Source: Torpedo marmorata
Lineage: Eukaryota
Reading direction: 5' to 3'
Assembly: GCA_977017645.1 (NCBI GenBank)
Contig: OZ360237.1
Span: forward strand, 30,380,001-30,444,000
DNA: 64,000 nt
Part shown: piece after piece, positions 1,631-49,670 of the stretch
Layout of the letters: every line of letters begins with the position of its first letter
Numbering within the stretch: position 1 is the stretch's first letter
Notes under the pieces: model-generated
What the model saw: only the letters and a program-made list of their open reading frames with translations
Database searches by the model: none
Told to the model about the DNA's origin: nothing
Program-made: the position numbers and the translations under genes

Positions 1631-1953
1631 TAGTTAGAGGGCCAATGTTGTCCATGGCTTCTAGAAACTCCTCATTAATATAGATGTGTTATGCAAGTAA
1701 TTATAATTATTTATTTGTAGGCATCATTGTACTCATTCAAATTAATTTATCACTAATGGGGAATATTTTATCTGACCGTTTGGTAATTGAGCAGTTTATT
1801 TATGTCTAAACTAAATTTTCATTGATTACAATAAACTTTGCTTGGTTGTTTGGGTTTACAGAGTACTGAGTTTGGAGTGAACTGTGAAAATCTTGGTTCA
1901 ACCAGAGAGAAGGTTCAAAGTCAAAGGCAGCTCTCAGTGTGCAAAATTGCAAG

Positions 1954-2331
1954 ATGTGGCGTTCAGTTGCAAAATATTTTCTCAATAACAGAATATATCG
2001 AAGTGGAATGCAAAAATTACTGCCTGCACAGAACGCTCTGTGTCATCCTGTACAAGATGTTCTTCATCAAGGCAGCAGGCTGCACAGCCGTTCAACTTTA
2101 AAACTAAATGTGCCAGTTTTAGCTATCCAAAAAGTAGAGACCTTTCATGAACAACGATGGTGCATTGTCCACTGGGAGGATGGAAACCATAGCCTGTATC
2201 CTTATGCATGGTTAAGGGATAACTGCCAGTGTCCCCACTGCTTTCTGTCGTCAGCTAAAGCAAGGAAACATCCCGTAAAAGATTTGGACGTGAACATTTT
2301 TCCAGAGAAAATCACCTTGTCTGACTCTAAG
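1954..2331 (+). CDS. BBOX1: Gamma-butyrobetaine dioxygenase, first coding exon (126 codons, phase-0 donor)
   Basis: Translation ...AIQKVE...SLYPYAWLRDNCQCPHCFLSSAKARK...DLDVNI matches the BBOX1 N-terminal Zn domain (human SLYPAVWLRDNCPCSDCYLDSAKARK). ATG at 1954, donor AAG|GTATTA at 2331/2332, likely acceptor ttacag ending at 1861. Confidence 0.93.
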
Positions 2332-2899
2332 GTATTATTATCTTAAAAATTATTTGGAAAGTGATTAAATGTTGCTCCCTAATTTCATCATTAATCTACA
2401 AATTGGCATAGAGCCATTAGGTGAAAGATTAAGTTATACCTGTCCTCTTTACTGTGAATTTGTTTAATATGTATGATTGATATATTATGAACATTTAATT
2501 GGCTTAAAAGCATTTTGAACAGGAAATGGCAAATCTATCGTATCAGTATGTATCTTTTTTTTAAACCAGGGAATAAAGTCAGTTTTTATATTTTAAAAAG
2601 TGTGGTAGCTTTTAGTATTCATGTGATACCACTACAAAATAAATTCTAATAATATAGAAAGACTATGTATTTTCCTGTTTAGAAATAAACGGAATGAAGT
2701 TGCCCTTGGGTACATTGATTAGGATTTGCTTTCCATATTTTGTAAACTGATTATATCATTCTGACAGAATTACAAATACAAGAACATTTACAACCTTTGA
2801 TAATCTTTTCCATCCTTGCCTTGCCCTCAGTAATTATTTTTCACTTCTGATGATTTCGCGCAGTAGTTGTTTTGGGACTCAGTTTAATTTTGAAATGTA

Positions 2900-7009: not shown

Positions 7010-10000
7010 GGTGGGCGGCGCATTGGAGTACGCAGCGGCCCCTCCAGGATCAGTAGTTTTTAGTAAAGGTAAAGGTTCCATTATTGTCACGTAATACTAC
7101 ATTTAGAATGTAACATACATGAAATTCTTTAATTTTTGTCTACCGTAAGGCAGACAGAGGGTCGCTATTTTGTCCAGCGCCCCTCACAGAAACCTACAGC
7201 ACCTGGTGTTCCTTGGCGGTCTCCCCTCCAAGTACTGACCAGTCCTGTGCCTGCTTAGCTTCCGAGATCAGACAATCCCAGTCGTATTCAGGCTATTGGT
7301 GCTGTTATAGATTATAGAGTTAAATAGTGTGTTTTAATTTTTAAAAAAAAAAAAACATTTGGAATATAGTTACCCGTTGCAACTACAATCTTCAGTCTTT
7401 AAAAATACTCAGAAACTCCTCTACTTACCTCCGGGAAGATCTGCGGGTTAAGCTACGCGACCACAGGCTGCTGCGGGGATTAGGCTTTAAAGCCTCGGGA
7501 TCGCGGAGAAGACGGAAGCGGTGCGCGAGGTGGAGGAAGCGCGGTAAGCGAGCAGGGGTGCGCGCTAGACTGAGAGCGAACCCGTGCCGTCTGGCTCTCC
7601 CGTCCATCCTGCTCGCCAACGTCTGTTCCCTGGAGAATAAAATGGACCACATCCGACTCCAGAGGTCTGCGCAGCGTGAGTACAGGGACTGCTGTGTTTT
7701 GGTCTTTGTTGAAACGTGGCTCAGCGACAGGGTCCCGGACGCCGCCATTCATCTGGATGGACTCGCTTTATTTCGGGCTGACGGAGATGCTGCTCTCTGG
7801 AAAAGTCCGTGGCGGTGGCTTGTGTGTTTACATCAACACAGAATGGTGTAAGGACTCTGTACTAGTCTCCAGTCACTGCTCAGCACTGGTGGAATTTGTG
7901 ACTGTCAGATGTAGACCATTTTACCTACCGCAGGAATTTACCGCGGTCCTCATAGTTGGAGTGTACATCACCCCCAGCGCTAATTCCAAGGAGGCGATCT
8001 GGGAACTGTGTGGGGCTATAGGCGAACTGCAGACCGCACACCCTGATGGATTGCTGATTATCACTGGGTACTTCAACCAGGCGAACCTCAAGTCAGGGCT
8101 ACCTAAATTCCATCAGTATGTGGACTTTGCTACGAGAGGGGCGAACATGTTGGACCTTGTGTTTACGAACATTTCCGATGCGTATCGGGCGGTGCCCTGC
8201 CCCCACCTCGGATACTCAGACCATATCTCTGTAATGCTAACCTCAGCATACAGACCGCTCGCCAGACGCTCCAGACCAGTTCTGAAGCAGGTTAAAACCT
8301 GGCCAGCAGGTGCCATCCATGCACTTCAGGACTGCTTTGAGCGTACTGATTGGCACATGTTCAGGGAAGCAGCAACCGATGGCGACTACATCAATCTGGA
8401 GGAGTATACGGCATCGGTGACTAGCTACATTAGTAAGTGTACTGACAAAGTCACTGTGCCCAAGACCATCATTACTCGCTCTAATCAGAAGCCATGGATG
8501 ACTGCGGAGGTGCATGTGTTGCTGAGGAGCCGAAACTCTGCCTTCAGTGGGGGTGACAAGGTAACCCTAGCTATTGCGAGAACCAAGCTGTGTAAGGCCA
8601 TCAGGGAGGCAAAACGTGCACATGCCCAGCGAATTCAGAGTCACTTACAGGACAGCAAGAACACGCGACGCATTTGGAAGGGCATTCAAGATATCACCAA
8701 CCACAAGACTACACTATCTGAATGTGCTGGTGATGCCTCCCACCCAGATGCACTGAACAACTTCTACGCGCGTTTTGAGGCAAAATATGATGTAGCGGCA
8801 AAGAAGACCACCCCTCCTCCAAATGATCAGGTGCTGTGTTTCACAGTGGCCGACGTGAGGAGAGTGTTAAGCAAGGTTAACCCACAGAAAGCTGCTGGTC
8901 CAGATAACATTCCCAGCAGAGTGCTCAGGTGATTTGCGACCCAGCTGGCTGATGTTCTCACCGACATCTTTAACATCTCCCTGACCAGTGCCGTGGTTCC
9001 AACGTGCTTCAAAGCCGCTACCATCATCCCCGTGCCGAAGAAGTCGACGGTGTCCAGCCTCAATGACTACCGCCCTGTCACACTCATATCTACTGTCACG
9101 AAGTGCTTCGAGAGGCTCGTCATGGGGCACATCAAGCTTCTGCTGCCCCCCCTCACTGGACCCCCTGCAGTTTGCATATAGATCAAACCGCTTTACGGAT
9201 GATGCCATCATTACCACCCTCCACCTAGCCCTCACCCACCTGGAAAATAAGGACGCGTATGTTCGAATGCTGTTTATTGACTTCAGCTCGGCATTCAACA
9301 CGATCATAGGGAAGTTGAGGGGGCTGGGCCTAAACAACACTCTCTGTAATTGGATTCTAGACTTCCTGACGGGAAGACCTCAGGCAGTCCGGATTGGAAA
9401 CAGCACTTCTAAGGTCATTACATTGAGCACGGGGGCTCCCCAGGGCTGTGTGCTTAGTCCATTGCTGTTCACTCTGCTGACTCATGACTGTGCAGCAAAA
9501 CACAGCTCGAATCACATCATCAACTTCACTGATGATACGACCGTGGTGGGCCTTATCAGCAAGAACGATGAGTCCGCATACAGAGATGCGGTGCAGTCGC
9601 TAATGGAATGGTGCGGAGCCAACAACCTGCATCTGAATGTAAATAAAACAAAAGAGTTGGTTGTCGACTTCAGAAGGGCCCGGGGGGATCATTCTCCATT
9701 GACCATGGACGGCTCTACCTTTGAGGTCGTAAAGAGTACCAAATTTTTTGGAGTGCACTTGGCGGAGAGTCTCACCTGGTCCCTCAACACCAGTTCCATA
9801 GTCAAGAAAGCCTAGCAGCGTCTTTACTTCCTGCGAAGGCTGAGGAAAGTTCATCTCCCACCCCCTATCCTTACTACATTCTACAGGGGATGTATTGAGA
9901 GTATTCTGAGCAATTGCATCACCGCTTGGTTTGGAAACTGTACCATCTTGGACCGAAAGACCCTGCAGAGGATAGTGGGGTCAGCGGAGAAAATTATTGT

Positions 10001-10892: not shown

Positions 10893-11155
10893 AAGTGATG
10901 ACAATTCTATTAATATATTGTGTAATTTTTTAATCAAACTATAGACCAGCATTTATAGTACTAAATGCTAGGATAAGTATAAACTCTAGTTGTTCTCAGT
11001 GGAGCAAAGGAGGATGGGCTTGTTATGCTGAATGGCTGTCTCCTTTGCCATAATATTATTGACTCCTTGGTAAGGAGGATTTTTTTTTTTTGCTTGGTTG
11101 GAAATTTTGGATTTTTGGAAGCATGGTTTTAAAAATTAAAAGCCAGGCTCCGTTG

Positions 11156-12133
11156 ATGGGTACGGCGGCAGGCACTGATCCCTCCCGACGCCAAGAACAT
11201 GGCGCCGGCAGGGAAATCGGGCCTGCTACGCGCATGCGCGAAAAGCCGGCAACAACGTCCTCAGACCAGGAAGGCACGAGTGGCTCCGATTTGGAAGACG
11301 AGGATGATCAGCTGGAGGCCGAAGCGCTACAACAACAACCGCCGGAGACGTCACAGCAAGTATTTAAAGGGGAACTGTCAACAAATGCAGCTATACTAAC
11401 AACACTTAGGGAATTAAAGGAAGATATGAACTATGTGAAAAAGGTAATTGATGATATGAAAGACTTGAAGTTAAAAGTAAAGAAGATTGAATATAAAGTT
11501 AAGAAAATAAAAACAGAAGTGGAAAGTACTGAAGGAAGAGTGGAGGCATTGGAAAATAATTACACTGTTTTAGAGATGGAAAATAAAAAACTCAAACAGC
11601 AAATGGACATAATGGAAAATTTTAGTAGAAGAAATAACATAAAGATCGTTGGTCTTAAAGAAGGTGAGGAAGGACAAGACATGATCGCTTTCATGAAGAC
11701 TTGGCTACCGGACGTGCTGGGCGCGGATAAGTTTGAGCGTGAAATTGAAATTGAAAGAGCCCACAGGGCTTTAAGAGCAAGGCCAACACAAGATCAATAC
11801 CCACGTTCTATATTAGTCAAGTTTTTAAGATACCAAGACAGGGAGCGAATTTTACAGACCGCAATGGAGGCAGCAAGACAGAGAGGAGGTCCCTTGATAT
11901 ATAAAGCAGCCAAAGTTCTTTTTTACCCAGACATAAGCGCCGACTTGATGAAGAGGAGGAAAGAATTCAATACAGCTAAAAAGACTTTGTGGGAGAAGGG
12001 GTATAGATTTGTGCTGCGACACCCAGCGACCCTGAAGATCTTTATACCGGACCAGCAAAACAAATTCTTTACAAACTATGTTTTAGCAGAGGAATTTGCC
12101 AATGAACTGCCACCGATTAGAGAGGAACGTTGA
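11156..12133 (+). CDS. L1 ORF1p (coiled coil + RRM/CTD RNA-binding protein)
   Basis: Coiled coil followed by ENFSRRNNIKIVGLKEG, IEIERAHR, PRSILVKFLRY and FYPDISADL motifs typical of L1 ORF1. First ATG inside the element is at 11156. Confidence 0.88.
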   Translation: MGTAAGTDPSRRQEHGAGREIGPATRMREKPATTSSDQEGTSGSDLEDEDDQLEAEALQQQPPETSQQVFKGELSTNAAILTTLRELKEDMNYVKKVIDDMKDLKLKVKKIEYKVKKIKTEVESTEGRVEALENNYTVLEMENKKLKQQMDIMENFSRRNNIKIVGLKEGEEGQDMIAFMKTWLPDVLGADKFEREIEIERAHRALRARPTQDQYPRSILVKFLRYQDRERILQTAMEAARQRGGPLIYKAAKVLFYPDISADLMKRRKEFNTAKKTLWEKGYRFVLRHPATLKIFIPDQQNKFFTNYVLAEEFANELPPIREER

Positions 12134-12582
12134 AAGATGAATGTGTTTTTCTTTTTTCTAGTATATATTGGTAAAAAAAGGGATATACATCAGTTTACAA
12201 CCTATATCTTGGAAATCTTAATGATAAAGAATGGTTTATGTTAAAAGTGTGATATCAGGGGGGTCGGGGAGAGGAGGGTGAGTTCCTGACTTCTGCTATA
12301 ATCATGTGTACTTCCGCGGCTAAGGCCGCGGCCCGTAAAATAGAGGGGGGTAGCGCTGTATATATTAGCAGCGCTAGTGGGGTTATAGTTAGAGCATGTT
12401 TTCTTTTTTATAGGGAGAGGGGAATGTACTTAGTAACTGTATATTTTTATTATAGTAACTGTATATATCACTGTAAGGACTATATGTTGGCTCGATGGAA
12501 ATTGAAGAAAGTAATTATGGAGGGTGAGAGGGGGGTCTGGGATGAAGAGGGTGACATTAATAGGAACGAAACATAATTAAAA

Positions 12583-15500
12583 ATGAGTAACGTATTGAGA
12601 TTCCTGAATTTTAACATTAATGGGATAAATGGACCAATTAAAAGGAAAAGAGTTTTAGCGTATATTAAAAAACTGGGTGTGGATGTAGCTTTTTTGCAAG
12701 AGACGCATTTAACAGAGAAGGAACATTTGAAATTAAAAAGAGACTGGGTGGGATATGTAAGGGCATCTTCATTTAACAGCAAGGCAAGGGGTGTGGCAAT
12801 TTTAATAAAAAAGAATCTTCCAATTAAGATACAAAGTGTTGCATCGGACCCCGCAGGAAGATATGTAATGATTAATTGCCAGATATTCTCTGAATTTTGG
12901 ACATTTTTAAATATATATGCTCCTAATATAGACGATGATAAATTTATTCAAGAGACCTTTCTCAATATAGCGGAAGCGCATGAAAATATCATAATTGGGG
13001 GAGACTTCAACTTTTGTTTAGATCCGGGGCTGGACAAATCTACAAGAGGAGGAAGGAGAACTAAAGCAGCAAAAGCCACGTTGGTGTTAATGAAGGATCT
13101 AAATTTGATTGACGCGTGGAGGAGAATCCACCCTAGAGATAAAGATTTCTCATTTTATTCTACTAGACATGATACTTATTCTAGAATCGATTTATTTTTA
13201 GCCTCAGCTCAAATACAAGATAGAATTTTGGAAATAGATTATAAGGCTAGAATCCTGTCTGATCATTCTCCTTTACTGATGACAGTGACGGTACCTGATA
13301 AAGAGAAATCGATATATAGATGGAGACTAAACCCTATGTTATTAAAAAGAACAGACTTCTGTGATTTTATAAAGAGACAAATTCAGATATTTTGTGAAAC
13401 AAATCTAAATTCAGTGACTGATAAATTTGTAATATGGGAAACTTTAAAAGTATTTTTAAGAGGTCAAATTATAAGCTACTCTTCAAAGATTAAAAAAGAC
13501 TATATGAAAGAAATAGATAAATTAGAAAAAGAGATAACGATTTTAGAAAAAGACTTGCAAAAGAGGAGTTCTACAGATAAAAGTAGGCAATTAACTAATA
13601 AAAAGTTACAGTATAATATGTTACAGACTTATAGAACGGAAAAAACCATTATAAGAACTAAACAAAGATACTATGAGCTAGGCGAACGTGCACATAAAGT
13701 ATTAGCATGGCAATTAAAAACGGAGCAGGCATCTAGAACAATCAATGCAATTAAAACAGAATCCGATGTCATTAGTTACAAACCCCAAACAATAAATGAT
13801 TCTTTTAGGAAGTTCTATTCTTATCTATACAAATCAGAATCATTACAAGATGATAGAAAAATTGATAATTATTTATCTCAAATAAATTTGCCAACATTAA
13901 ATGTACAAGAGCGTCTAAATTTAAGCACACAGATTACACAAAGGGAAGTAAAGGATGCAATTAGCGCACTACAAAGTAACAAAGCACCGGGAGAAGATGG
14001 TTTCCCACCAGAGTTTTATAAAGAATTCAAAGAATTATTGACTCCCATTTTTATGGATATGTTACAACAAGCGTCAGTGACCCATACACTCCCAGAGTCC
14101 TTCTCAACTGCAATAATTACAGTAATACCAAAAAAAGATAGAGATCCATTGAAACCCTCATCCTATAGACCAATTTCACGACTGAACACAGATTATAAAA
14201 TTGTAGCAAAGATCCTGGCAAATAGGATAACAAATTTTCTGCCAAAGTTAGTAAATATGGACCAAACAGGCTTCATAAAAAAAAGACAAGCAGCAGATAA
14301 CGTAGCAAGATTACTCAGTATTATGTATTTAGCTCAAAAAAGGAAAGTACAAAGTGTAGCAGTGGCACTGGATGCAGAAAAAGCTTTCGATAGGTTAGAG
14401 TGGGACTTTTTATTTAAAGTTTTGGAAAAATTCGGGTTTGGGAAGACGTACATAGACTGGATTAAAGCGTTATATAATGCCCCAAAAGCCAAAGTAGTGA
14501 CAAATGGACAATTATCAACCCCCTTTTACTTAACAAGATCTAGTCGACAAGGGTGCCCATTGTCACCAGCTTTATTTGTACTAGCGATAGAACCGTTGGC
14601 AGAAGCGATTAGAAGTGATGTGGAAATCAAAGGATTTACAGTTGGTCAAGAGCGACATAAAATAAGTCTATTCGCGGATGACGTATTAATATACTTGACC
14701 GAACCTGAGACCTCTTTGCAAAAACTACATCTTAAGTTGGAGGAATATGGAAAAGTTTCTGGATATAAGATAAATTGGGATAAAAGTGAAGTTATGCCTC
14801 TTACGGAAGGAGATTACGCTGTATGCAAGAGAAGTACCCAGTTTAAATGGCCACATAATGGAATAAAATACCTAGGGGTCCGGACAGATAATAAATTAAA
14901 GAATTTATACAAGTGGAATTATGTACCATTGCTTAATAAGATTAAGGAGGATCTAGAGAAATGGATTAATCTGCCAATCACATTGATAGGAAGAGTTAAT
15001 TGTATTAAGATGAATATATTTCCAAGGATACAGTACTTGTATCAGACTATACCTATTACACTACCACAGGTATTTTTTCAAGACTTAAATAAACAGGTGC
15101 GAAAGTTTTTATGGAAAGGAAAAATGCCAAGAGTTTCGATGGAACGTTTAACATGGAAATATGAACTGGGAGGTTTACAGCTCCCTAATTTTAAGAACTA
15201 CTATAGAGCGACACAGATGCGTTTTATTGCTTCTTTTTTTGAATCTGAAGAAAGACCTGCGTGGGTTGGAATAGAGCTTGGAGAAATAGGAGAGAAGAAG
15301 TCACAAGAATTTATATATAAATGGAACTCAAAACTGTTGACAGGTGTTAAAGAAACACCGCTATTAAAACATTTGATTAATGCTTGGAATAAGGTTAATG
15401 ACGATATAGGATTAAAAGGAAATGAATCACCTAAAATGCCATTGATACAGAACAATCTGATACCATTTACAAAAGATAACCCTTTTTTAAATATATGGTC

Positions 15501-16362
15501 ATTAAAAGGAATAAAGAAAATAGAAGATTGCTACGAAGGAAATCAAATGATGTCATTCATACAATTACAGAATAAATACGGAATACCTAGAAATACATTT
15601 TTTTGCTATCTTCAACTAACAGCTTACTTAAGAGGAAAATTAGGTCCAGACATGTTGTTACAAGAATGCAGCGAGGTAGAAACTATTATTAGGAAAGGAA
15701 ACATTAAGAAATTTACTTCCATAGTATATTCTTTGTTACAGAAGGGAGCTCAAAAACGAGGACTTCATAAGTCCAGACAAAGATGGGAACAAGATCTTAA
15801 TATTATAATTGATGAAAAAAGATGGTCAGATCTATGCCTAGATAGTATGACTAATACTGTTAATGTAAGATATAGACTGGTACAATATAACTTCTTACAC
15901 CAAATATACTTCACACCACAAAAACTGAGCAAGATGAATTCTGCAATACCAAATAGATGTTTTAGATGTGGAGAAGAAGAAGGAACATTCTTACACTCAA
16001 CGTGGTCATGTTCAAAAGTTAAAGATTTTTGGGCAGAGTTAGGAAACCGGTTGAAACTAGTTACAGGTGTTGCATTTCCTCAAAACCCTGACTTGTTCTT
16101 ATTGGGGAATATAGAGGGAACTAGACCAAAATTGAAATTATCCATATGGCAATAAAAATTCGTGAAAATTGCACTAGCAGTAGCTAGGAAATGTATAGCA
16201 GTAACCTGGAAATCGGACACAAATCTGAGTATGAGTAGATGGAATTCAGAGATGCAGAGTTGCATACCATTGGAAAAAATAACATACAATATGAGGAATA
16301 AGTATGGACTCTTTTTACAAATTTGGCGTCCATTTATCCAATTATCAGGAATGAATATTTAA
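12583..16362 (+). CDS. L1 ORF2p (APE endonuclease, RT, C-terminal Cys-rich domain) with one premature stop at 16153-16155
   Basis: NINGIN, LQETH, GGDFN, SDH, LDAEKAFDR, QGCPLSP, LFADD, CFRC..H..C motifs. The frame continues past the TAA to 16362. Confidence 0.92.
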
Positions 16363-20620: not shown

Positions 20621-20734
20621 TTGAATCAAAATCCATCTTGGTCATTGAAGGAATCCCAGTTTGGTTTAAGGCATTCCTTTTGGTAAAGCTAATTAAAAGC
20701 TAGTGTGTGTGTAACAAAAAAAAAACCAGCAACA

Positions 20735-23700
20735 ATGGATGTAGAACATTTTTTGGAATCACCTGAACCTGATACTTTAAAAAAGGCGAAAAAGGAACAG
20801 TTAGTGGCTATAGCAACAGAGTTGGGCATTGCTTCTGTAAAACCATCTATGAAAAAGGCAGAGATTGGGAGAAAAATTGTCAAGTACTATATAAAAGAAA
20901 AAAAGTTTGAGGAGAGCATGTTAGAGCAGTTTCCCAAGGGTAAACCTTCTGAAAACATACAATTGGAAATAAAGAAATTGGAATTGGAACAAAAGAACAG
21001 GGAATTGGAGGCAGAGAGGGAACAAAAGAACAGGGAATTGGAGGCAGAGAGGGAACAAAAGAACAGGGAATTGGAACAAAAGAAATTTGAGGCAGACAGG
21101 GAACAAAAGAAATTAGAATTAGAATTGGAATTGGAACGAAAGAGATTAGACTTAGAGAACGATGAGAGAAATAGGAAATATGAGTTGGAAAAGATGAGGT
21201 TGGAAAATGAGAGGAGACAAGAAGAGCGCCAAGATCAAATTCGTCATCCTGCTGAGGGGTTTTTGGCTAGTAGAGAAGTTAGGTTGGTTCCTCCATTTGA
21301 GGAGGCAGAAATAGATAAGTACTTCCAACATTTTGAGAAAGTGGCTGTAAAATTAAAATGGCCACAAGACCAATGGTCTCTTATGTTACAAAGTGTAATA
21401 AAAGGAAAAGCTCAGCAAGCTTATTCTACTCTTACCACAGAACAGGCTGCTGATTATGAAACGGTGAAGAAGGCTATACTCCAGGCTTATGAGTTAGTTC
21501 CAGAGGCTTATAGACAGAAGTTTAGAAATTTAAAAAGATCAGCAACCCAATCTTATACAGAGTTTGCCTATGAAAAAGTTGTGTGTTTTGACAGATGGTG
21601 CACATCTAAGGAAGTAAACAATGATTACAATCAATTGAGAGAATTGATAATAATCGAGGAGATAAAAAGGTGTGTTCCTGAGGATATTAAGGCCTACTTA
21701 GATGAAAAGGAGGTGAAAACTTGGCAAAATTCAGCTAAGTTAGCAGATGAATATGCTTTAACCCACAAGCCTAAGTGGACGTCAGGTAGAATTTTCCAAA
21801 AGGTCACGGTGGATAATCAGAAGCAAGTGGAAAGTAAATTTGGAAGTGGTGGTAAGGAAAGGGATGAAGGAAAGTGGAAAAGGGAAAACAATTCCGGTCC
21901 CATTTGCCACTACTGTAGAAAGGCTGGTCATATGCTAGCAAGCTGTCCAGTGTTGAAAAAGAAGAGAGAAAAGGATGCAACACCTAATGCTTGTATTCAG
22001 AGTGAGAAGATGCATAACACCCAGGAAGGAGATAAATGTACTGACCAAGTTAAAGATGTATTTAAACCTTTTGTGACTGATGGTTTTGTTTCAGTTAAGG
22101 CAGGATCAAAACAGGTTCCAGTGAAAATCTTGAGAGATACTGGAGCTGCTCAGTCACTTGTGTTAGATAGTGTCTTGGAATTTTGTGAAGCTACTGACAC
22201 CGGTGACATAAATTTAATAAAAGGAATTGGTGGTGAAGTTGAGTCCATTCCTTTGCACAAAATAGTATTGGACTCAGACTTGGTGGAAGGACCAGTTATA
22301 ATAGGAGTGAGATCAGAGTTGCCCGTAGAAGGAGTCTCACTGTTGTTAGGCAATGACTTGGCCAAGGGTAAAGTAGTTCCTGCAGTGCGAATGACCACTA
22401 AGCCAGTCATTGATAAGTCAGAGAAAGACTCTGATATTTATCCGGCATGTGCCATAACCAGGGCCATGTCTAAGAAAAATGTCACTGTAGAGAAGGCAGT
22501 GGAAAATAACTTGGTAACAGAAAAAGAAACTGATAATCAAGAAAACCTGGAAAAGGTTGAGCAATCTCCTATGTTACACCCATCCACTGATAAGACACCT
22601 AAAGGCACAGATTTGTCACTATCCCGACAGGAGTTAATAGCAAGGCAAAAGGACGATCAGGATCTTGCTGAGGTGAGGGATAAGGTTCTCTCTGAAGAGG
22701 AGATTAAAAAGGTGCCAGTAGGGTATTATGAAAAAGATGGGGTGTTGATGAGAAAGTGGAGACCACGTGATGTTCCTGCAAATGAAGAATGGGCAGTAGT
22801 GCAGCAGGTTGTGATCCCTAAAGTATATAGGGATGAAATAATAACTTTGGCTCATAGTACACCCTTAGGTGGTCATCTTGGGGTGAAGAAAACTATAAGT
22901 AAGATAATGAAACAGTTTTATTGGCCCAGTTTGAGAAGGGAGGTTGTAAGCTTTTGCCGGGCCTGTCACACTTGTCAGGTGGTGGGTAAACCTAATCAGG
23001 GTCCCCCGGTGGCACCCTTGCAACCTATCCCTGCGTTTAGTGAGCCTTTCTCGAGAGTAATTGTGGACTGTGTTGGCCCATTGCCCAAAACCAAGGCGGG
23101 GAATGAGTATTTGTTAACAATTATGTGTGCAGCCACCAGATTTCCAGAGGCCATTCCTCTGAGAAACATTAAAGCAAAGTCAATTGTAAAGGCCATGGTA
23201 AAGTTTTTCACCTTGGTAGGTTTGCCAAGGGAAATTCAATCAGATCAGGGCAGTAATTTCATGTCAGGCGTTTTCCAACAAGTGGTTGATGGACTAGGAG
23301 TTAAACAGATTGTATCCTCTGCGTACCATCCAGAAAGTCAAGGGGCCTTGGAGAGGTTCCATTCGACTTTGAAAACCATGATTAGAACCTATTGTTGTGA
23401 GAAGGAAAAGGATTGGGATGAGGGGGTTCATTTGTTGTTATTTGCAGCGAGGGAGTCTGTCCAAGATTCGCTTGGTTTTAGTCCATTCGAGTTAGTTTTC
23501 GGACATGAGGTGAGAGGTCCTTTAAGATTATTAAAAGAACAGTGGATTAATCGTGATGTGCATTTAAATCTGTTAGACTATGTTTCAAAATTTAAGGATC
23601 GATTACATAGGGCTTGTGAGATGGCAAAGGAGAATTTAAAGGCCACTCAACAGAGAATGAAGGTTTGGTATGATCGAAAGGCGAAGATGAGAACTTTTAA

Positions 23701-24220
23701 ACCTGGTGAGAACGTATTAGTTCTGTTTCCCATCCATTCAAATCCTCTTAGGGCTAGATTTTCAGGACCCTATAGAGTTAAGTCAAAAATTAATGATGTC
23801 ACCTATGTCATAGAAACACCTAATCGCAGACGAGACACACAGGTCTGTCATGTGAATATGATTAAGCCATATTTTGAACAGGTGCCACACAAAGGGACTG
23901 AAAATGTACCAGAGGTACTGGTTATTGATCAGGGTAAGGAGGAGACAGATGAAACCAGTTTCAGAGAGGGTCATGGGACACAGAAATTGATAAGCCCGAG
24001 GTTAGAAAATTCCATGATTTTGCGCAATCTGGAGACAAAGTTGGCTCATCTGAAAACTTCAGAAAAGGAAGAGATGAGTCAGTTATTTTTAAAATTTATA
24101 AGTTTATTTCCTGATGTGCCTCAGAAAATTTCCATCGCTTATCATGATGTGGATGTAGGAGATGCAAGACCGATAAAACAGCATCCCTATCGAATCAATG
24201 CGGAAAATGCAAACTGGTAG
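20735..24220 (+). CDS. Gag (SCAN-like capsid CTD, CCHC knuckle) - protease - integrase polyprotein
   Basis: EAYRQKFR...LRELIIIEE, CHYCRKAGHMLASC, LRDTGAAQSLV, H..GGHLG..C..C, IVDCVGP, QSDQG, ESQGALER, GPY motif. ATG at 20735. Confidence 0.93.
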   Translation: MDVEHFLESPEPDTLKKAKKEQLVAIATELGIASVKPSMKKAEIGRKIVKYYIKEKKFEESMLEQFPKGKPSENIQLEIKKLELEQKNRELEAEREQKNRELEAEREQKNRELEQKKFEADREQKKLELELELERKRLDLENDERNRKYELEKMRLENERRQEERQDQIRHPAEGFLASREVRLVPPFEEAEIDKYFQHFEKVAVKLKWPQDQWSLMLQSVIKGKAQQAYSTLTTEQAADYETVKKAILQAYELVPEAYRQKFRNLKRSATQSYTEFAYEKVVCFDRWCTSKEVNNDYNQLRELIIIEEIKRCVPEDIKAYLDEKEVKTWQNSAKLADEYALTHKPKWTSGRIFQKVTVDNQKQVESKFGSGGKERDEGKWKRENNSGPICHYCRKAGHMLASCPVLKKKREKDATPNACIQSEKMHNTQEGDKCTDQVKDVFKPFVTDGFVSVKAGSKQVPVKILRDTGAAQSLVLDSVLEFCEATDTGDINLIKGIGGEVESIPLHKIVLDSDLVEGPVIIGVRSELPVEGVSLLLGNDLAKGKVVPAVRMTTKPVIDKSEKDSDIYPACAITRAMSKKNVTVEKAVENNLVTEKETDNQENLEKVEQSPMLHPSTDKTPKGTDLSLSRQELIARQKDDQDLAEVRDKVLSEEEIKKVPVGYYEKDGVLMRKWRPRDVPANEEWAVVQQVVIPKVYRDEIITLAHSTPLGGHLGVKKTISKIMKQFYWPSLRREVVSFCRACHTCQVVGKPNQGPPVAPLQPIPAFSEPFSRVIVDCVGPLPKTKAGNEYLLTIMCAATRFPEAIPLRNIKAKSIVKAMVKFFTLVGLPREIQSDQGSNFMSGVFQQVVDGLGVKQIVSSAYHPESQGALERFHSTLKTMIRTYCCEKEKDWDEGVHLLLFAARESVQDSLGFSPFELVFGHEVRGPLRLLKEQWINRDVHLNLLDYVSKFKDRLHRACEMAKENLKATQQRMKVWYDRKAKMRTFKPGENVLVLFPIHSNPLRARFSGPYRVKSKINDVTYVIETPNRRRDTQVCHVNMIKPYFEQVPHKGTENVPEVLVIDQGKEETDETSFREGHGTQKLISPRLENSMILRNLETKLAHLKTSEKEEMSQLFLKFISLFPDVPQKISIAYHDVDVGDARPIKQHPYRINAENANW

Positions 24221-25425
24221 ATCAGGAAATTGACTACATGGTAAAGAACAATATTATTCGAAAGTCTACTTCCAATTGGAGTTCCCCTTGTGTTCTAGTG
24301 CCGAAGCCTGATGGAACGGTTAGGTTTTGTACTGATTATAGGAAAGTAAATGCTGTAACCAAGACAGATGCTTATCCTATTCCTAGAATAGATGATTGTA
24401 TAGACAAGGTGGGGAAGGCCAAATTTCTTACAAAAATTGACCTATTAAAAGGATACTGGTGTGTTCCTTTGACAAAAAGGGCTAGGGAGATTTCTGCATT
24501 CGTAACACCTTTTGGGCTTTATGAGTATAATGTTATGCCTTTTGGTATGAAGAATGCTCCAGGATCATTTCAGAGAATGATTAATTCAGTGATTCAAGGG
24601 TTGAAAAACACAGGTGCTTACATTGATGATTTAATTGTAAGTAGTGAGACCTGGGAAGAGCATGTCTTTGAGCTAGAACAATTGTTTGAACGACTGTCCA
24701 AAGCAAAACTCACAGTTAATTTAAGTAAAAGTGAGTTTGGACATGCTACTGTTATTTATCTGGGTTATGTAGTAGGACAGGGGCAGTTGGCGCCAGTAGA
24801 GGCAAAGGTTGTCGCTATTTCCGAGTTCCCTGTTCCAACTGGTAAGAAAACTCTGAGGAGGTTCCTGGGAATGATTGGCTACTACCGCAAGTTCTGTAAA
24901 AACTTTGCTGATCTTGCGCTCCCTCTCACAAATTTGCTTAGAAAGAAAGAGAAATTTGTATGGTCTACAGGTTGTCAGGAAGCATTTGTCAAATTGAAAG
25001 CCATGTTATGCCACCAACCTGTGCTTAAGTCACCTAATTTAGAACAGTCGTTTTCTTTAGCCGTGGATGCCAGCGATGAAGCTGTGGGTGCGGTGCTGTT
25101 ACAGAAGAAGAACGAAGAGGACATTGAACATCCGGTATCCTTCTTCTCAAAGAAGTTCAATGATCATCAAAGGAATTATTCAACTATAGAGAAAGAGTTG
25201 TTGGCTCTTGTGTTAGCTCTACAACATTTTGATGTGTATATTTGTACAGCTCAAAAACCACTCATAGTGTATACTGACCATAATCCATTGGTTTTTCTTT
25301 GTAAAATGAAAAATAAGAATCGACGGTTGTTGAATTGGAGTCTAATTTTGCAAGAATATAATTTGGTAATCACTCATATAAAAGGGAGGGATAATGTAAT
25401 TGCTGATTGTCTTTCTAGATGTTAA
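24205..25425 (+). CDS. Reverse transcriptase - RNase H (continuation of pol after a 1-nt frameshift near 24205)
   Basis: WSSPCVLVPKPDG, DYRKVN, KIDLLKGYW, MPFGMKNAP, YIDD, AVDASD, YSTIEKE, TDH, NVIADCLSR. Confidence 0.92.
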   Translation, partial: KCKLVDQEIDYMVKNNIIRKSTSNWSSPCVLVPKPDGTVRFCTDYRKVNAVTKTDAYPIPRIDDCIDKVGKAKFLTKIDLLKGYWCVPLTKRAREISAFVTPFGLYEYNVMPFGMKNAPGSFQRMINSVIQGLKNTGAYIDDLIVSSETWEEHVFELEQLFERLSKAKLTVNLSKSEFGHATVIYLGYVVGQGQLAPVEAKVVAISEFPVPTGKKTLRRFLGMIGYYRKFCKNFADLALPLTNLLRKKEKFVWSTGCQEAFVKLKAMLCHQPVLKSPNLEQSFSLAVDASDEAVGAVLLQKKNEEDIEHPVSFFSKKFNDHQRNYSTIEKELLALVLALQHFDVYICTAQKPLIVYTDHNPLVFLCKMKNKNRRLLNWSLILQEYNLVITHIKGRDNVIADCLSRC

Positions 25426-33217: not shown

Positions 33218-34803
33218 GAAGTAAAACACGAAAATCTGTAGACACCGTGGATGAAGTAAAAAACACAAATGCTGGAGAAACTCAGCAGGTCAAACAGTGT
33301 CTGTTATGTAGCAAAGGTAGAAATACATAACCGACGTTTCGGGCTTGAGCCCTTCATCAAAGTATGAGAAAATGCCGGCAGGCGTCCGAACAAAAGAGTG
33401 AGGGGGGAAGGGGGGGGGGTGGCAAAGGCAGGAGATGATAGGTGGAGAAAGGAGGGAGGGGACAGCAGCAAAGAGGGGGAGGTGGGATGGCTGGGTGGGT
33501 GTAAAAAAAAAAACGAAGGACAGGTGAGGGGGGAGGGGAAGGAAACGACAAGCAGATATAGTGGAAAGCAGAAAAGTCAATGTTAATGCCATCTGGCTGG
33601 AGAGAGCCCAGATGGAAAATGAGATGTTGTTCCTCCAATTTGCGGGTAATGTGGGTAGGATAGTACATAAGGCCATGGACAGACATGTAAGTGTGGGAGT
33701 GTTACCCGGAATTGAAATGGTTGGCTACTGGGAGGTCGCTGTTGTTGCAGACGGAGAGGAGGTGCTCAGCAAAGCGATCTCCCAATCTACGACCGGTCTC
33801 TCCGATGTAGAGAATGCCACAAAGGGAGCATCGGATGTAGTAAATAAGTTCTCTGGATGTACAAGTGAAGTGTAGTTTCACTTGGAAGGCCTGTTTGGGG
33901 CCCCAGACCGTTGTGAGGGGGGAGGTGTGGGTGCGGGTGTTGCACCTCCTGCGGGCACAGGGGAAGGTGCCGGGGGTGCGATGGGTGGGGAGGGATGAGT
34001 GCACGAGGGAATCGCGGAGGGAGCGGTCCCTGCAGAAGGCCGAGAGGGGAGGAGAAGGAAAAATGTGTCTGGTGGTGGGATCCTGTAGTAAGTGCCGTAA
34101 ATTCCGGTGCATAATGTGTTGGATGCGGAGGCTGGTGGGGTGGTAGGTGAGGATGAGGGGGATTCTATGTTTGTTGCGTCTGGGGGCAGAGGGGGCCAGG
34201 GCAGATGAGTGGGAAATGGAGGAGATGCGGATGAGGGCTGAGTTGATGGTGGTGGAGGGGATGCCACGTTTGTGGAAAAAGGCAGACATTTCAGAAGATC
34301 TGGACTAGAACACCTCATCTTGGGAACAGATGCGGCGGAGACGGAGAAATTGAGAGAAGGGGATGGAATCCTTGCAGGGGACAGGGTGTGAGGAAGTGTA
34401 ATCCAGATAGTTGTGGGAGTTGGAGGGTTTGTAGTAAATGTCGGTGGAAAGCTTGTCTCCTGAGATGGAGACAGAGAGATCCAGGAAGGGGAGAGTGTTA
34501 TCGGAGATAGACCAGGTGAGTTTGAGATCGTGGTGGAAGTTGGATGCGAAGTGGATGAAGTTGACAAGCTCATCGCGGTGCATGAGGCAGCCCCGATGTA
34601 GTCATCTATATAACGGAGGAAGAGATGAGGGGTCTTGCCTGTGTAGGCTTGCAGCATGGATTGCTCCACAAAACCCACAAACAGACAGGCGTAGCTGGGA
34701 CCCATGCGGGTACCCATGGCTACTCCTTTGATTTGGAGGAAGTGGGATGAGTTGAAGGAGAAGTTATTGAGAGTGAGGACAAGTTCTGCCAGGCAGAGGA
34801 GGG
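33218..34803 (-). mobile_element. Second, 5'-truncated PLE unit (RT C-terminal half, GIY-YIG, pLTR)
   Basis: Near-identical direct repeat of about 29496-31025, extending ~40 nt further at the pLTR end. Confidence 0.9.
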
Positions 34804-34875
34804 TGGATATGCCAGGGATTGAACTCAGGATCTGATACATGCAAAGCACACACTCTCCCACTGAGCCACATCTCC
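34804..34875 (-). pseudogene. tRNA-Ala(UGC)-derived sequence (72 nt) embedded in the PLE
   Basis: Minus strand GGAGATGTGGCTCAGTGGGAGAGTGTGTGCTTTGCATGTATCAGATCCTGAGTTCAATCCCTGGCATATCCA is about 60/72 identical by eye to the recalled vertebrate tRNA-Ala-TGC. Confidence 0.88.
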
Positions 34876-37367: not shown

Positions 37368-37796
37368 CAGTAAAACCCCTGGTATCTGGCAGCTCACAGC
37401 ACATAATAGCCTGAATATGACTGGGGTTGTCTGATCTTGGAAGCTAAGCAGGCACAGGACTGGTCAGTGACCACCTAGGAACACCAGGTGCTGTAGGTTT
37501 CTGTGAGGGGCGCTGGACAAAAGTAGCGATCCTCTGTCTTGCCTTACAGTAGACAAAAATTAAAGAATTTCATATATGTTACATTCTAAATGTAGTATTA
37601 CGTGACAATAATGGAACTTTTACCTTTACTTATGGGGATGCCGGATAAGGGAATTTTCCAGTTGCTTGAGATTGCGTGATTGGCGAACGAACAGCGAGGC
37701 GTGCCAGTTTTAAACTTCGTATTTTTTACCTATTTATTTTCCACGATTTTTTTTTTTGCTGGTTGCTTGAATTCCAAATAAAATGGGTGTTTACTG
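37368..37796. mobile_element. Tc1/mariner-type MITE (CAGTAAAACCCC family) interrupted by a 5S SINE
   Basis: TA|CAGTAAAACCCCTGG ... GTGTTTACTG|TA. Confidence 0.8.
37395..37630 (+). mobile_element. 5S rRNA-derived SINE
   Basis: Same head and tail as 7064-7306, with a ~12-nt deletion in box C. Confidence 0.9.
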
Positions 37797-41595: not shown

Positions 41596-43659
41596 TAGTT
41601 GGATTCGTCAGGCTCAAGCAACATTTTGAAACTTTACCAGGTGATGCAAGTCAGCTTGCAAGAGCAGCTGCTGAAGAAAAAGCTTTTAATCTTTAAAAAG
41701 AGGCCTTGTTTCTTTGCCTTGAATGATCCCTCGTGTTGTTCAGTCTCTTGAACAGATATCCCTGTGGACATATTTGACTGGCCATTATAAACCAATTCAT
41801 GGGGTCGAGGCAGAATGCCAGGTGAGCAGCTTCCTGTAGGTTCTCTGGAGGATCTGACGTGCTGGCTCAGCCATTTCTGTGAAGAAAAGGTGGGACAATG
41901 GAGAATGTTCACAACTGCCAGGAATTACATCAGAATTAATAGAATCTGCAGAAATTACTGGGAATTGGGAGAGTCTGAAAATATACAATTAGGTTTTGCT
42001 CACCTCCTTCAACATCTCCTCTGTCTCCCTCTGGTTCCACTTCAGAATCAGAATTTATTGTCATGAACAAGTCATGAAATTCGGTGTTTTGCGGCAGCAT
42101 CACAGTGCAAACATTCATATTATTTCCATCTTACGACATTGTTGTCCTTCTGTCAAAAGAGATAGTCCTGTGATGTAGTTATTTTCCCTCTGACAGTAAT
42201 GCCATATCTCCCACATTCTAATGGAAAGACTTGGACTATTCATGAGTCTTTGATCAAGATATTCTATAATATTAGTTGACATATTCCTACGCTTTAAGGA
42301 CCTGCAGAAAAATTGAAATTCTGCTGCTTTAATGTTGTTTCATGCATTACAGCATTTCAAATAGTTGTGAAGTGTGCATAGCATTTGGGGAGAAAATTAT
42401 GACCTGGGGAGGCTGACATCATGCTAACGTGTGAATAAGTGGCATGTGGTTCGGACGAGTGAATATTTTTTTTGAGAACCTCACAAGCAGTTATGTTTCC
42501 CCTCCTCGTGAGGCCTTTAAATTCCTTTCAGTCAAGTTCTTTGGTGCCACTGGAGTAGAAAGCTTGGCTTGTGTTAAAAGAGTCCAATACCTTTCATCAA
42601 TGGCAATGATGTGTAGCATCTCTTAAAGACCTACATCGGTTATACAGTTGTCTCTTCATCTGAATGTCTCACTGTAGTGAGATGCTATCTCACTTGGGTT
42701 CTGTACCGATTTTGATGGAAATTGTTGTGGGACAAAGATGCTTAACGCAAATTATTGATAAAAGTGTTTAGTTTAAAGTTTAGTCTCATCTTTCATACTT
42801 TTACTTTTATCAACTGATTAAAACCCTACATTCAGCTGCCTCGAACTCCCCATCGATGGCGCAGTATCATCTGTCTCCGGCTGCCTTTTATACAGTTTTC
42901 ACTTGTTCAAACACAATTGTATCAATCCTATCCTGCACCTGGCAATTGGCACCATCATGTCTACTCTTATACCACTAAATCACAACTTTTACATTTGCCC
43001 CGAAATAGCAACCTTTATATTTTGTATGCAAATACTGTCCTTGTCTATGTACAAAACTACTCAAGTCACAAACACTCAGTCACAAAACTATTCTTGAATT
43101 CTACACCTTGACCTTCTTCGTGTTTCTTTACAATAGTTTTTCCATGTATTTAACGTGGACAAGTAGATTTAGTACATCTGGGATCTATACAACTGTTGCT
43201 GATATTTTGCAGCATTTGGAGGTGAGGCATTTGAAAAGAGGTAAGATCTTCCCTTCCTAGATTACCACATGACTACAAATGTGTGTTGTCCCATAATCGG
43301 TAGCATCACGATCTGGTATGGGAACACCAATACCTCTGAGCGTAAAGCCCTCCAAAAGGTAGTGAACACAGCCTAGGACATCACAGGCAAAACCCTCCCC
43401 ACTATCGAGAATATTTACAGGGAATGCTGCCGTCAGAGAGCAGCAGCAATCATCAAGGATCCACACTGTCCAGCACACACTCTGTTCTCACTGCTGCCAT
43501 CAGGAAAGAGGTAGAGGTGGCACAAGTCTCGCACCACCAGGTTCAGGAACAGCTGCTACCCCTCCACCATCAGACTCCTCAACAACAAACTCGATCAGGG
43601 ACTCATTTGAGGACTCTTTACTTTTGCACTTTATTGATTTTTTAAAATTCTCTCTGTAC

Positions 43660-43877
43660 CAATAGCCTGAATACGACAGGGATTATCTGATCTCGGAAGC
43701 TAAGCAGGCACAGGACTGGACCGCCTTAGGAACACCAGGTGCTGTACATTTCTGTGAGGGGCGCTGGACAAAGTAGCGACCCTCTGTCTGCCTTACGGTA
43801 GACAAAAATTAAAAAGAAATTCATGTATGTTACATTCTAAATGTAGTATTACGTGACAATAATGGAACCTTTACCTT
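43660..43877 (+). mobile_element. 5S rRNA-derived SINE
   Basis: Same family as 7064 and 37395, TGTAC direct repeat on both flanks, ~18-nt internal deletion across box C. Confidence 0.9.
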
Positions 43878-43965
43878 TGTACAGTTAGTTTGTTTACATT
43901 TCTTTATCTGTTTTCATGTGTACGTTGTGTACTTTTTTTTGCACTACCAATAAGTGGTAATTCTG

Positions 43966-47059: not shown

Positions 47060-48890
47060 CAACTTCAATTCTCTGATAACAGTAAGAAGGAAATTGTCCT
47101 TGAAACTTGAGTTCATGTTTTAAAGCTCGTGTACCCTCTGCCCGACAAAAAGGAGGAAGTGGGGAGAGAAGAGAGTGTGACTGGGTTGGGATGGGTCCTT
47201 TAATATATTTGGCAGCTTTCCCAAAACAATGGGTGGAATAGATGGCCTGAGTTGCAGTTTCTTGCAGTTTTGGGCAAGACTGTACCAAGCTGTGATGCAT
47301 CAGATGCTTTCTATGTTGTAGCTATTTTAAAAATAAAAATTGGAAGAGAAATTGGGCACATGCTGAATTTCCTTAGGTTTCTGAGGATGTAGAGTTTTTG
47401 AACTGCTGTATTTGCTGTCGTTGGACCAGAACAGGTTAGTGATATTTAAAGTTAAAGGTAAAGGTTCCATTATGTCACGTAATACTACATTTAGAATGTA
47501 ACATACATGAAATTCTTTAACTTTGTCTACCGTAAGGAAGACAGGGAGTCGCCACTTTGTCCAGCGCCCCTCACAGAAATGAGGCCCCAGCGGGGAACGA
47601 ACTCGTGGACCCTGCTTTACAAGACCAGTGCTCTAACCACTAAGCTGTGGAGCCTCTTATTCCTAGGAGCTTGAAGTTCTCCACCTTGACACTGTTGATA
47701 CATACAGGGGGAGGTTCCCCCACACTCCATCCACTTCCTGAAGTAGAGAACCAGTTCCTGGTTGTTGTCCTCAGAGTATGACACCATGCTCTCTCCTTCC
47801 TGTACTCCATGTCGCCATTGAGATCTGTCCTGCGACAGTGGTGTCATCTGCAAACTTGTAAATGGCAGTAGATAGGAATTTGGCCATGCTGTCATGAATG
47901 TATTGGCAGTATTGGAGGGAAATAAGTGCACACTGGTATTGAGGATTATCGTAGATGTTTTGTTGCTATTCCTCACTGAGCATGGTTTGCAGGTCAAGGA
48001 TCTAGTTGCAAGGGTGGGTGTTGAGCCCTAGGTTTGGCGATGAGTTTGTCTGGGACTATTGGGTTGACGAGCTATAGTCAATAAATTGGGTCTGGCAAAG
48101 GTATTTCTGAGTGTTCCAGGTCTAAGTGCAGGGCCAGGGAGATGGTGTTACAACAGTTGTAGTGGGAGGTCAAAGTTGATGTGAACCATGACCAGCCATT
48201 CAAAGCACTGCATGATGATGCATGTCAGAACCACTGGGTGGTTGTCATTGAGGCACATTGGCTTGCTTTTCTTTGGTACTGAGATGATAGTGGCCGTCTT
48301 AAAGCAGATGGGAACTTCAGCTGCAGCAGGGTGAGGTTAAAGATCTCCATGAATACTAATGTCAACTCGTCAAGAAATGACCAAGGACTCCATCCAGGCT
48401 GATTGTTTTTCATGGATTCACTCTCAGGAAGGCTATCTGATGTCTGCAATGGTAACCATGGATGCGTCGTGCATGAAGCTGTTGATGTCGGTTCACTGTC
48501 CTTCTGTTCAACGCAAGCATAGAATGCATTGAGCTCATTGTGGAGAGATGCATTGTTATCTTTTGATTCTGCCTGATTTTGCTTTGTAGCCCTTGCTGGT
48601 ATGCATACCTTGTCTCAATTGCCGAATATCTGTGAGGTTTATCTGGGTCTCAAGCTTGGTCTGATATTGCCTCTTGGTGTCCCTGATGGCCTTGCGAAGA
48701 TCATGCCTGGATTACTTGTATAGATCAAGGTCACCAGACTTGAAGCCTAAGACCTGGACTTCAGCAAGGAGTGCATCTTCTGGTTCATCCACACTTTCTC
48801 AGATTGTTTGCTTTGGCACACAGTCATCAACAAATTTGCTAATAAATTCTGTAACGGCATTGGCATTTGTATTTAGATTGGCCAGTGAGA
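47060..48890 (-). mobile_element. Old degenerate Rex-Babar-type LINE
   Basis: Minus-strand remnants of LNDY.PV, IILNT, KFADDT and KFLG motifs across frameshifts. Confidence 0.65.
47447..47654 (-). mobile_element. tRNA-Thr(UGU)-headed SINE sharing the tail of the 5S SINE
   Basis: 47654-47582 reads GGCTCCACAGCTTAGTGGTTAGAGCACTGGTCTTGTAAAGCAGGGTCCACGAGTTCGTTCCCCGCTGGGGCCT (about 65/73 to recalled tRNA-Thr-TGT), then TTTCTGTGAGGGGCGCTGGACAAAG...(CCTTTA)n. Confidence 0.9.
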
Positions 48891-48917: not shown

Positions 48918-49670
48918 TCAAGATCAAGATTCAATTCATTGTCATAGTAATAAAACAGTGTCATATGACATGAAATTTCTTTTTGCCTGCTGCAAGGCAG
49001 ACAGATTCGCCTCCGCCAGAAATTGCCAGCGCCTTTAACATTCCTTACATTCAGAGAAAGAGAAGCAACAGAGAGTCCCCCCAGAGTCACCGAGTGTCCG
49101 TAGATTCGCCTCCAGCGCTTCCACAGCCTCCGCAGCCACACAGAGTCCAACCCAAGCTCCAGATCCAAACCGACACAGTCAGGAACCCTTCGGCACCCCC
49201 TCGCATCCTGGTTCCGATACCTGGTACTCCTCCAGCCAGTTCGAGCCAGTCTCCAGCAGTCCGCAGCCCGGCGCGAGTCTCCCGACAGCAGTCTCCAGCA
49301 GCCCACAGCCTCCGCGGGTTCCTCGCCTCGAGTCGCCAGCAGCCCGCCGCATGCACTGGTCCTTCAGCCTCCGAGCCCCTCACTGGTCCGCTGCCGTGGT
49401 TTACCGTCCTGTGGGTCGTCTCCTCCGCTTCTCCTTCTCAGGCGGGGGGTGATATTTCCGTCCTCTGGTGCACTGTTCCAGTCCTCCGCTTCCCCGGAGT
49501 CTGCAGCCCCTCGTAGCTGCTGCCGATTAATAGGCGCTGCCATCTTGGGCGCAGACCCCGCGGTCGCCCGATCTCAAATAAAACCACCGTCGGCTCCCTC
49601 AAAGCCTGTGCGGAGCCGACGGCAGTCGACTGGGCGGCTGAACCCCGCGGGTGCGCTGCATCTCCACTCC
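48918..49670 (-). mobile_element. GC-rich non-coding retroposon with a tail homologous to the 5S/tRNA SINE tail
   Basis: Minus-strand 3' end GGCGCTGGC...TCTGTCTGCCTTGCAGCAGGCAAAAGAAATTTCATGT...TGACAATGAA followed by (TCTTGA)n. No credible ORF. Confidence 0.65.

Follow-up and report, generated by a model that had tools for sequence, protein, structure and literature searches.

How does one SINE tail come to be carried by heads that belong to two different classes of RNA polymerase III (Pol III) promoter? The question is raised by a stretch of 64,000 nucleotides of the Torpedo marmorata genome (contig OZ360237.1, positions 30,380,001 to 30,444,000; hereafter the window), where an initial annotation, made from the sequence alone, had placed three SINEs with 5S rRNA-like heads and one with a tRNA-Thr(UGU) head. 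All four were found at the positions given there, the tRNA-headed one on the minus strand, which had not been stated. They belong to two young, dispersed SINE families with one 3' tail, and tRNA-Thr(UGU) probably replaced the 5S head once, through a template switch during reverse transcription.

Structure of the tRNA-headed and 5S-headed copies

The focal SINE comprises a tRNA-Thr(UGU)-derived head (47582..47654, minus strand; Rfam RF00005, 37.2 bits), a CA linker that follows tRNA base 73 (47580..47581, minus) and the shared LINE-type tail of 127 nt (47453..47579, minus), which has the letters of the tRNA form at the diagnostic sites (T44, AAAG) and is 93.8% identical to the tail of the copy at 7064. 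Judged by its sequence, the head would act as a type 2 Pol III promoter. It differs from the host tRNA-Thr genes at eight positions (two in the family majority), and ARAGORN makes no tRNA gene call on it; the T in place of A at position 58, reported in the initial annotation, was confirmed. Folding the tail as RNA predicted a first hairpin (47544..47572, minus) and a second one (47525..47543, minus) that is also present in the long elements described below and in a LINE 3' UTR. Further on lies a 3' stem-loop with a CAATAA-type motif (47467..47510, minus), which has the same architecture as LINE 3' ends with different paired letters and is likely the signal recognised by a LINE, and the element ends in an (ACCTTT)n repeat (47453..47465, minus). 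No target-site duplication was found at this copy (47453-47654).

Only one of the 5S-headed copies is full-length (7064..7306, minus; head 7306-7193, tail 7192-7064; Rfam RF00001, 44.5 bits), and it sits within the 5' part of a Rex1/Babar-like LINE with open reading frames at 7345-9815. Near-complete heads had been claimed for all three; those of the copies at 37396..37628 (plus) and 43658..43878 (plus; inserted in a LINE 3' UTR) carry internal deletions of 12 and 17 nt, and Rfam passes only the head of the 7064-7306 copy. The letters before the TTT are not uniform either, as the 43658-43878 copy has CA instead of GG at the junction. The claim of a common tail on both heads stood in that the tails begin at the same TTT and the focal tail shares 91-94% identity with the tail of each 5S-headed copy, and needed correction in that the CA linker parts the tRNA from the tail. 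The 43658-43878 copy combines a 5S head and a 5S-type tail with the CA linker of the tRNA form, so a CA linker may come about with no tRNA involved, or may pass from one form to the other. In the 5S head at 7193-7306, the terminal helix is kept through a G-C to A-U double change, with three additional pairs in the predicted fold.

Copy number and age

Across the 6.2 Gb of genome searched, the tRNA-Thr-headed junction had 866 exact matches (27-letter pattern) and the 5S-headed junction 13,795 (28-letter pattern), while the reversed control patterns had none for either junction; the matches are therefore not due to chance, and the suspicion that the tRNA-Thr fusion might be a lone chimera is laid to rest. 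A further ~200 tRNA-headed copies with a variant junction were estimated by extrapolation. When 30 loci were drawn from a DNA search, every one had the tRNA head at the same joint, and five of seven independent 5S-headed flank copies had the exact 5S pattern. As a rough extrapolation, there would be ~20,000 or more 5S-headed and roughly 1,500-2,000 tRNA-headed copies, the latter being ~13-16 times fewer. A random 200-kb sample contained two copies, too few for a census, and a flank-based copy density was set aside because duplicates, split copies and copies that cluster locally had raised it.

Both forms are young, at ~2-3% from their majority sequences: non-CpG tail divergence was 1.8% for 20 tRNA-headed and 2.9% for 20 5S-headed copies, in sets taken in genome order with an exact junction required, which biases them to young copies. 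The tRNA form is ~205 nt long and the 5S form ~245 nt. In sequencing runs, 0.45-0.70 of the words from one tRNA-headed copy were found under four organism labels (shares of 0.15 or less ignored).

The heads compared with host genes

The pattern of an A58-bearing tRNA-Thr(UGU) occurs at 10 places, made up of five gene-like loci without the tail and five SINE copies. The identical host genes L083 and L089 served as references, and the majority sequence of the tRNA head matches them at 71 of 73 positions, differing at positions 48 and 58 only. Position 48 is changed in 16 of 17 tRNA-headed copies (three of 20 were dropped for truncation or indels), and position 8 is variable, with seven of the 17 differing from the gene. 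Of 706 matches, the first 100 listed all have T58, which was thus fixed in the master. Back-mutation would account for about as many A58 copies as the five seen, two of which share further changes and may form a small early branch. ARAGORN calls these five SINE copies (L081, L082, L084, L087 and L088, half of the 10 places) tRNA-Thr genes, which would inflate tRNA gene counts.

The usual B-box consensus has A58 and T58 should weaken the promoter; the tRNA head spread despite this change. Reverse transcriptase is known to misread m1A58, and repeated misreading is expected to give a mixture with G or A. The initial annotation had taken T58 as the trace of such misreading on a mature tRNA, which is possible, and one ordinary founding mutation fits equally well. 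No account of modified-base traces in SINEs was found in the literature covered, including the available text of PMC5322556. The CA linker lies a single change away from a CCA end, and also from the trailer of gene L089 when the TTT is included. A gene trailer, a fold-back and a CCA end would account for it equally well, so mature tRNA is one of several possible sources.

The 5S head matches the host tandem 5S genes at 92 of 117 positions, with 33/39 in the internal control region, 24/41 in the first 41 nt, and 13/15, 5/6 and 15/18 in boxes A, IE and C. Pol III promoter boxes are thus present in both heads by sequence. The 25 changes from the host gene are shared across 5S-headed copies; together with those at tRNA positions 48 and 58, such shared non-gene changes rule out a set of pseudogenes. 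In the available text of the SINEBase paper (PMC3531059), SINEs are defined as interspersed elements of <1 kb and at least 100 copies whose identity to tRNA, 5S or 7SL RNA is 60% or more across 60 nt; both forms are of this size, dispersal and copy number, and the two head identities (71/73 to the tRNA-Thr genes, 92/117 to the 5S gene) place them within this definition. The host 5S genes themselves lie in a tandem array with units of ~3.2-3.8 kb (G000:C25:86.2-86.6 Mb; L091-L098).

Since the 5S head has diverged by 21% and the tRNA head by 3%, on tails that are 3% apart, the tRNA would have replaced the 5S head, and the 5S form is likely the older one.

Linkage of heads and tails

The two forms differ at three to four of 129 tail sites (97% identity), and these were scored in 199 distinct copies, comprising 93 tRNA-headed, 72 5S-headed and 34 headless ones. 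Both tRNA-type marks were found in 72 of the 93 tRNA-headed copies, another five had one 5S-type mark, 16 were unscored at one site at least, and none of the 93 carried a full 5S-type tail with both marks. Conversely, 62 of the 72 5S-headed copies had both 5S marks, one was mixed with T44, nine were unscored, and the tRNA-type AAAG was found in none of the 72. Head and tail changes are also linked within the tRNA form, in a subfamily (116 matches) that includes the copy in the window.

Odd-junction patterns that excluded both standard junctions gave 49, 33 and 194 matches (276 in all). Reading 30 loci per pattern (90 of the 276) yielded 42 5S heads, 12 tRNA-Thr heads and 36 headless copies. 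A third head (U6, 7SL or another tRNA) was absent from these 90, although the exclusion patterns span part of the possible junction letters (about half, for the first two) and a small family could be missed. At the junction of the 36 headless loci no Rfam family was found, and they share no head, with upstream likeness confined to loci in the same host repeat or in a duplicated locus. A headless master element was rejected on these grounds, as copies with no common 5' sequence fit ordinary 5' truncation.

The near-complete linkage of heads and tails and the lack of a third head among the 90 loci read point to one swap followed by amplification, not to repeated switching. Of the two readings offered in the initial annotation, the one that has held up is a young pair whose Pol III head class changes at a single breakpoint, given 866 and 13,795 exact matches at ~2-3% divergence. 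The other, in which the tail repeatedly switches onto abundant Pol III RNAs, found no support.

Origin of the tail and the partner LINE

The whole tail aligns with the 3' end of ~830-nt elements that lack open reading frames, at ~80% identity. These elements have a defined 5' end and number 5,566 candidates genome-wide (L099-L118 are examples); several subfamilies have different terminal repeats, and no small-RNA head was seen on them. The window contains an older relative of theirs at 48920..49633 (minus), with ~70% identity to the SINE tail. Everything downstream of the head aligns over its full length with the long-element 3' end; this leaves no space for a central body, and both forms are devoid of a CORE, Deu, V or Meta domain, as determined by alignment to the long element and not to the domain consensus sequences. 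With these elements as outgroup, the ancestral states are divided: the tRNA-form tail keeps T33 and a G, and the 5S form keeps G44 and the fourth A. Neither modern tail is thus simply the ancestor of the other.

The predicted layout of the tail (hairpin, A-rich spacer, stem-loop, CAATAA and short repeat) recurs in local LINE 3' UTRs, which differ in the paired letters. This type of LINE encodes Pfam RVT_1 and ALKBH8_N domains, and the LINE in the window encodes the peptide of the Rex1 primer RTX1-F1 and, ~558 nt on, a peptide similar to that of the second primer. The available text of PMC4635592 gives a Rex1 amplicon of ~550 bp, and Rex1 elements are described there and in the available text of PMC6274825 as having a conserved 3' UTR followed by 5-7-nt repeats. 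At the DNA level, neither primer matched the window LINE within five mismatches, so the clade call rests on the peptides and the 3' layout. The tail appears to have the architecture of Rex1/Babar-like LINE ends, and its partner would be a LINE of that kind. Scans for LINEs over 0.95 Mb returned several tail families, and an autonomous LINE with a near-identical tail was found neither in this ~0.95 Mb (tblastn of the LINE C-terminus and motif scans) nor in the odd-junction searches. Target duplications of at least 8 nt were seen in two of 55 full-length copies.

Double changes at the junction

A junction pattern with C in the middle of the triplet had 377 matches genome-wide, of which 30 loci were read and the first 100 were counted by hand: those of tRNA type had CCT (54), CCC (2), TCC (3) and TCT (3), and those of 5S type TCC (27), TCT (5), CCT (4) and CCC (2). 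By extrapolation, CCT-type doublets occur in ~200 of ~1,070 tRNA-headed copies. The single-change rate would give ~0.1 independent doubles in the tRNA form and ~0.02 in the 5S form, against extrapolated CCT counts of ~200 and ~15. Seven further TT sites of the tail were checked for CC, and each had it in 0 of 199 copies. The first 100 members of the 116-member subfamily included five CCT, one CCC, two TTC and one GTT, and neither CTT nor TCT.

Inheritance alone was rejected as the source of CCT, which is seen in two tRNA subfamilies and in 5S-headed copies; a fixed rate of mutation per copy was likewise rejected, as the CCT share is unequal between subfamilies, 6% versus ~19% (Fisher p 0.0006, on extrapolated counts). 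The TCC variant of the 5S form is confined to one subfamily (9/9) and was probably inherited. With the G-rich stretch that immediately follows, CCT, TCC and CCC each complete a short palindrome. The five letters made up of the final three tRNA bases and CA are exactly complementary to five bases close to where the tail begins, a match with a chance of ~0.8% over eight loop lengths that was chosen after the fact. The junction hairpins are weak and do not go beyond shuffled sequences (z -0.3 to -1.1).

Fold-back or slippage during copying is a plausible cause of the doublets, and other candidate sources of CCT are a short direct repeat, on which slippage could occur, and exchange between SINE RNAs. 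A more daring and decidedly tentative idea is that the junction is a built-in slip point: an imperfect palindrome at the start of the tail might make the cDNA fold back or mis-pair in each round of copying, leaving TT-to-CC changes in dead copies and once yielding a cDNA end able to pair with the last bases of tRNA-Thr. If true, this would explain why the breakpoint is exact and why this tRNA was taken, and the slip point would be a readable genomic record of SINE head swapping. Should the junction changes be templated in copying, they would give direct access to how SINE modules are swapped. Palindrome-perfecting changes at a SINE junction were not described in the full-text literature covered, which includes few subscription papers.

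A probable single head swap and its alternatives

The reading that I favour runs as follows. Whichever head they carry, master copies would be transcribed by Pol III from the promoter inside it, and the protein of a Rex1/Babar-type LINE would bind the 3' stem-loop and prime at the (ACCTTT)n end, so that copies would be inserted by target-primed reverse transcription, mostly without target duplications. The 5S-headed lineage would have come first, and reverse transcription would have switched a single time, at the junction, from a 5S-headed RNA to tRNA-Thr, perhaps aided by a junction cDNA end that folded back or slipped and paired with the 3' end of the tRNA. A few tRNA-headed masters would then have been amplified beside the 5S-headed copies.

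The expected intermediate tail was not seen among the 5S-headed copies examined. This, together with the split ancestral states, leaves room for two captures of one donor tail, in which a single donor retroelement, truncated at its 5' end, would have received 5S rRNA in one event and tRNA-Thr in another, at the same point because both transcripts end in U's that pair with the AAA end of the cDNA. I consider such a double birth rather unlikely. Host 5S genes do end in a T run, the trailer of L089 is a near match to linker plus TTT, and each form has kept some of the ancestral tail letters; however, a 5S head diverged by 21% on tails that differ at three to four of 129 sites calls for a young donor, which was found neither in the odd-junction loci read nor in the ~0.95 Mb scanned, and the headless copies have no common upstream sequence.

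That the tRNA-headed form is ancestral and 5S was added later seems less probable still. This is the direction proposed for HaSE3 and AmnSINE1 in the available texts of PMC3272025 and PMC4494074, and the tRNA-form tail keeps two outgroup states, but the tRNA head is 97% identical to the host gene and the 5S head 79%, and tRNA-headed copies are both less diverged and ~13-16 times fewer. Finally, that each tRNA-headed copy is a separate, non-propagating template-switch chimera like U6-L1, as a nearly host-like head and an m1A58 misread at every event might suggest, is very improbable and largely refuted by linkage, given a position 48 change common to 16 of 17 copies, tail letters private to the tRNA form, a 116-match subfamily with linked head and tail marks, a single isotype, and T58 in 100 of 100 listed copies instead of a mixture with G or A.

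Relation to described SINE systems

The family had not been recognised as a described one in the initial annotation. The pair is probably undescribed in print, as no account of a 5S/tRNA-Thr pair was found in the full-text literature covered, which includes few subscription papers, and it may already be listed in Dfam, Repbase or SINEBase; the arrangement itself is known. The comparisons that follow are with the available parts of the papers cited. HaSE1 (tRNA) and HaSE3 (5S) of Helicoverpa armigera have the two heads on the same body and tail, with 94% identity between consensus 3' regions, and a template switch has been proposed for HaSE3 (PMC3272025; the pair also appears in PMC5786205). 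They differ in being from an insect, in the RTE partner, in the central domain of HaSE1, in the direction from tRNA to 5S and in the rarity of the 5S form, whereas the Torpedo pair has a dominant and apparently older 5S form, no body and a Rex1/Babar-like tail. CoeSINE4 (tRNA) and CoeSINE5 (5S) of the coelacanth are likewise a vertebrate pair with different head classes and similar 3' sequence (PMC5786205), but have a bipartite RTE 3' part and a (CAA)n end; four tail motifs of the Torpedo family had no exact match in the searched supplement of that paper (Kojima 2018). Ped-1 (5S) and Ped-2 (tRNA) of the springhare also place the two heads on one LINE-derived 3' part, with a Bov-B/RTE partner and in a rodent (PMC3747384).

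Both head classes are also found on the RSg-1 LINE tail in salmonids, in SlmI and HpaI (tRNA) and OS-SINE1 (5S) (PMC3747384, PMC3272025); these share a tail of ~70 nt and have CORE or Deu bodies, whereas the Torpedo pair shares the whole 3' part. Sauria has the same (ACCTTT)n end, and a 5S-headed relative, 5S-Sauria, has been named (PMC13295347, PMC5786205). Its Bov-B tail comes with target duplications, unlike the Torpedo copies (2/55), whose tail resembles local Rex1/Babar-like ends; this sets the two apart by description and not by sequence. The cartilaginous-fish SINEs HE1, SacSINE1 and the CmiSINEs have tRNA heads throughout, on bodies of the V, Deu or CORE type and tails of the CR1/L2 type, and the descriptions covered contain no 5S-headed SINE from cartilaginous fish (PMC3747384, PMC5499810). 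Recurrent addition of heads has been reported for SINEU (PMC4494074).

Exchange between 5S and tRNA heads is usually inferred from old and diverged families, while here both forms are young and abundant. Their activity fell in one period and their tails are 97% identical, so that type 1 and type 2 Pol III promoters can be compared on a single retroposition signal under almost controlled conditions. That the 5S form outnumbers the tRNA form runs against the weakness expected of retroposed 5S promoters in the available text of PMC3272025. Apart from this, the pair makes a useful entry for repeat libraries.

Other features of the window

A tRNA-Ala(TGC)-like piece (34802-34875, minus; called by ARAGORN and by Rfam with 41.3 bits) lies at a rearrangement joint inside an RT/GIY-YIG element, which I take to be Penelope-like, and is possibly another template-switch product. 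Long open frames at 11063-16155 (plus) and 20693-25425 (plus) presumably belong, judging from their motifs, to an L1/Tx1-type LINE and a Gypsy-type LTR retrotransposon, respectively. An exon-like stretch at 1888-2346 (plus) matches Pfam GBBH-like_N (gamma-butyrobetaine hydroxylase-like), and the window is probably in or near a gene of this kind.
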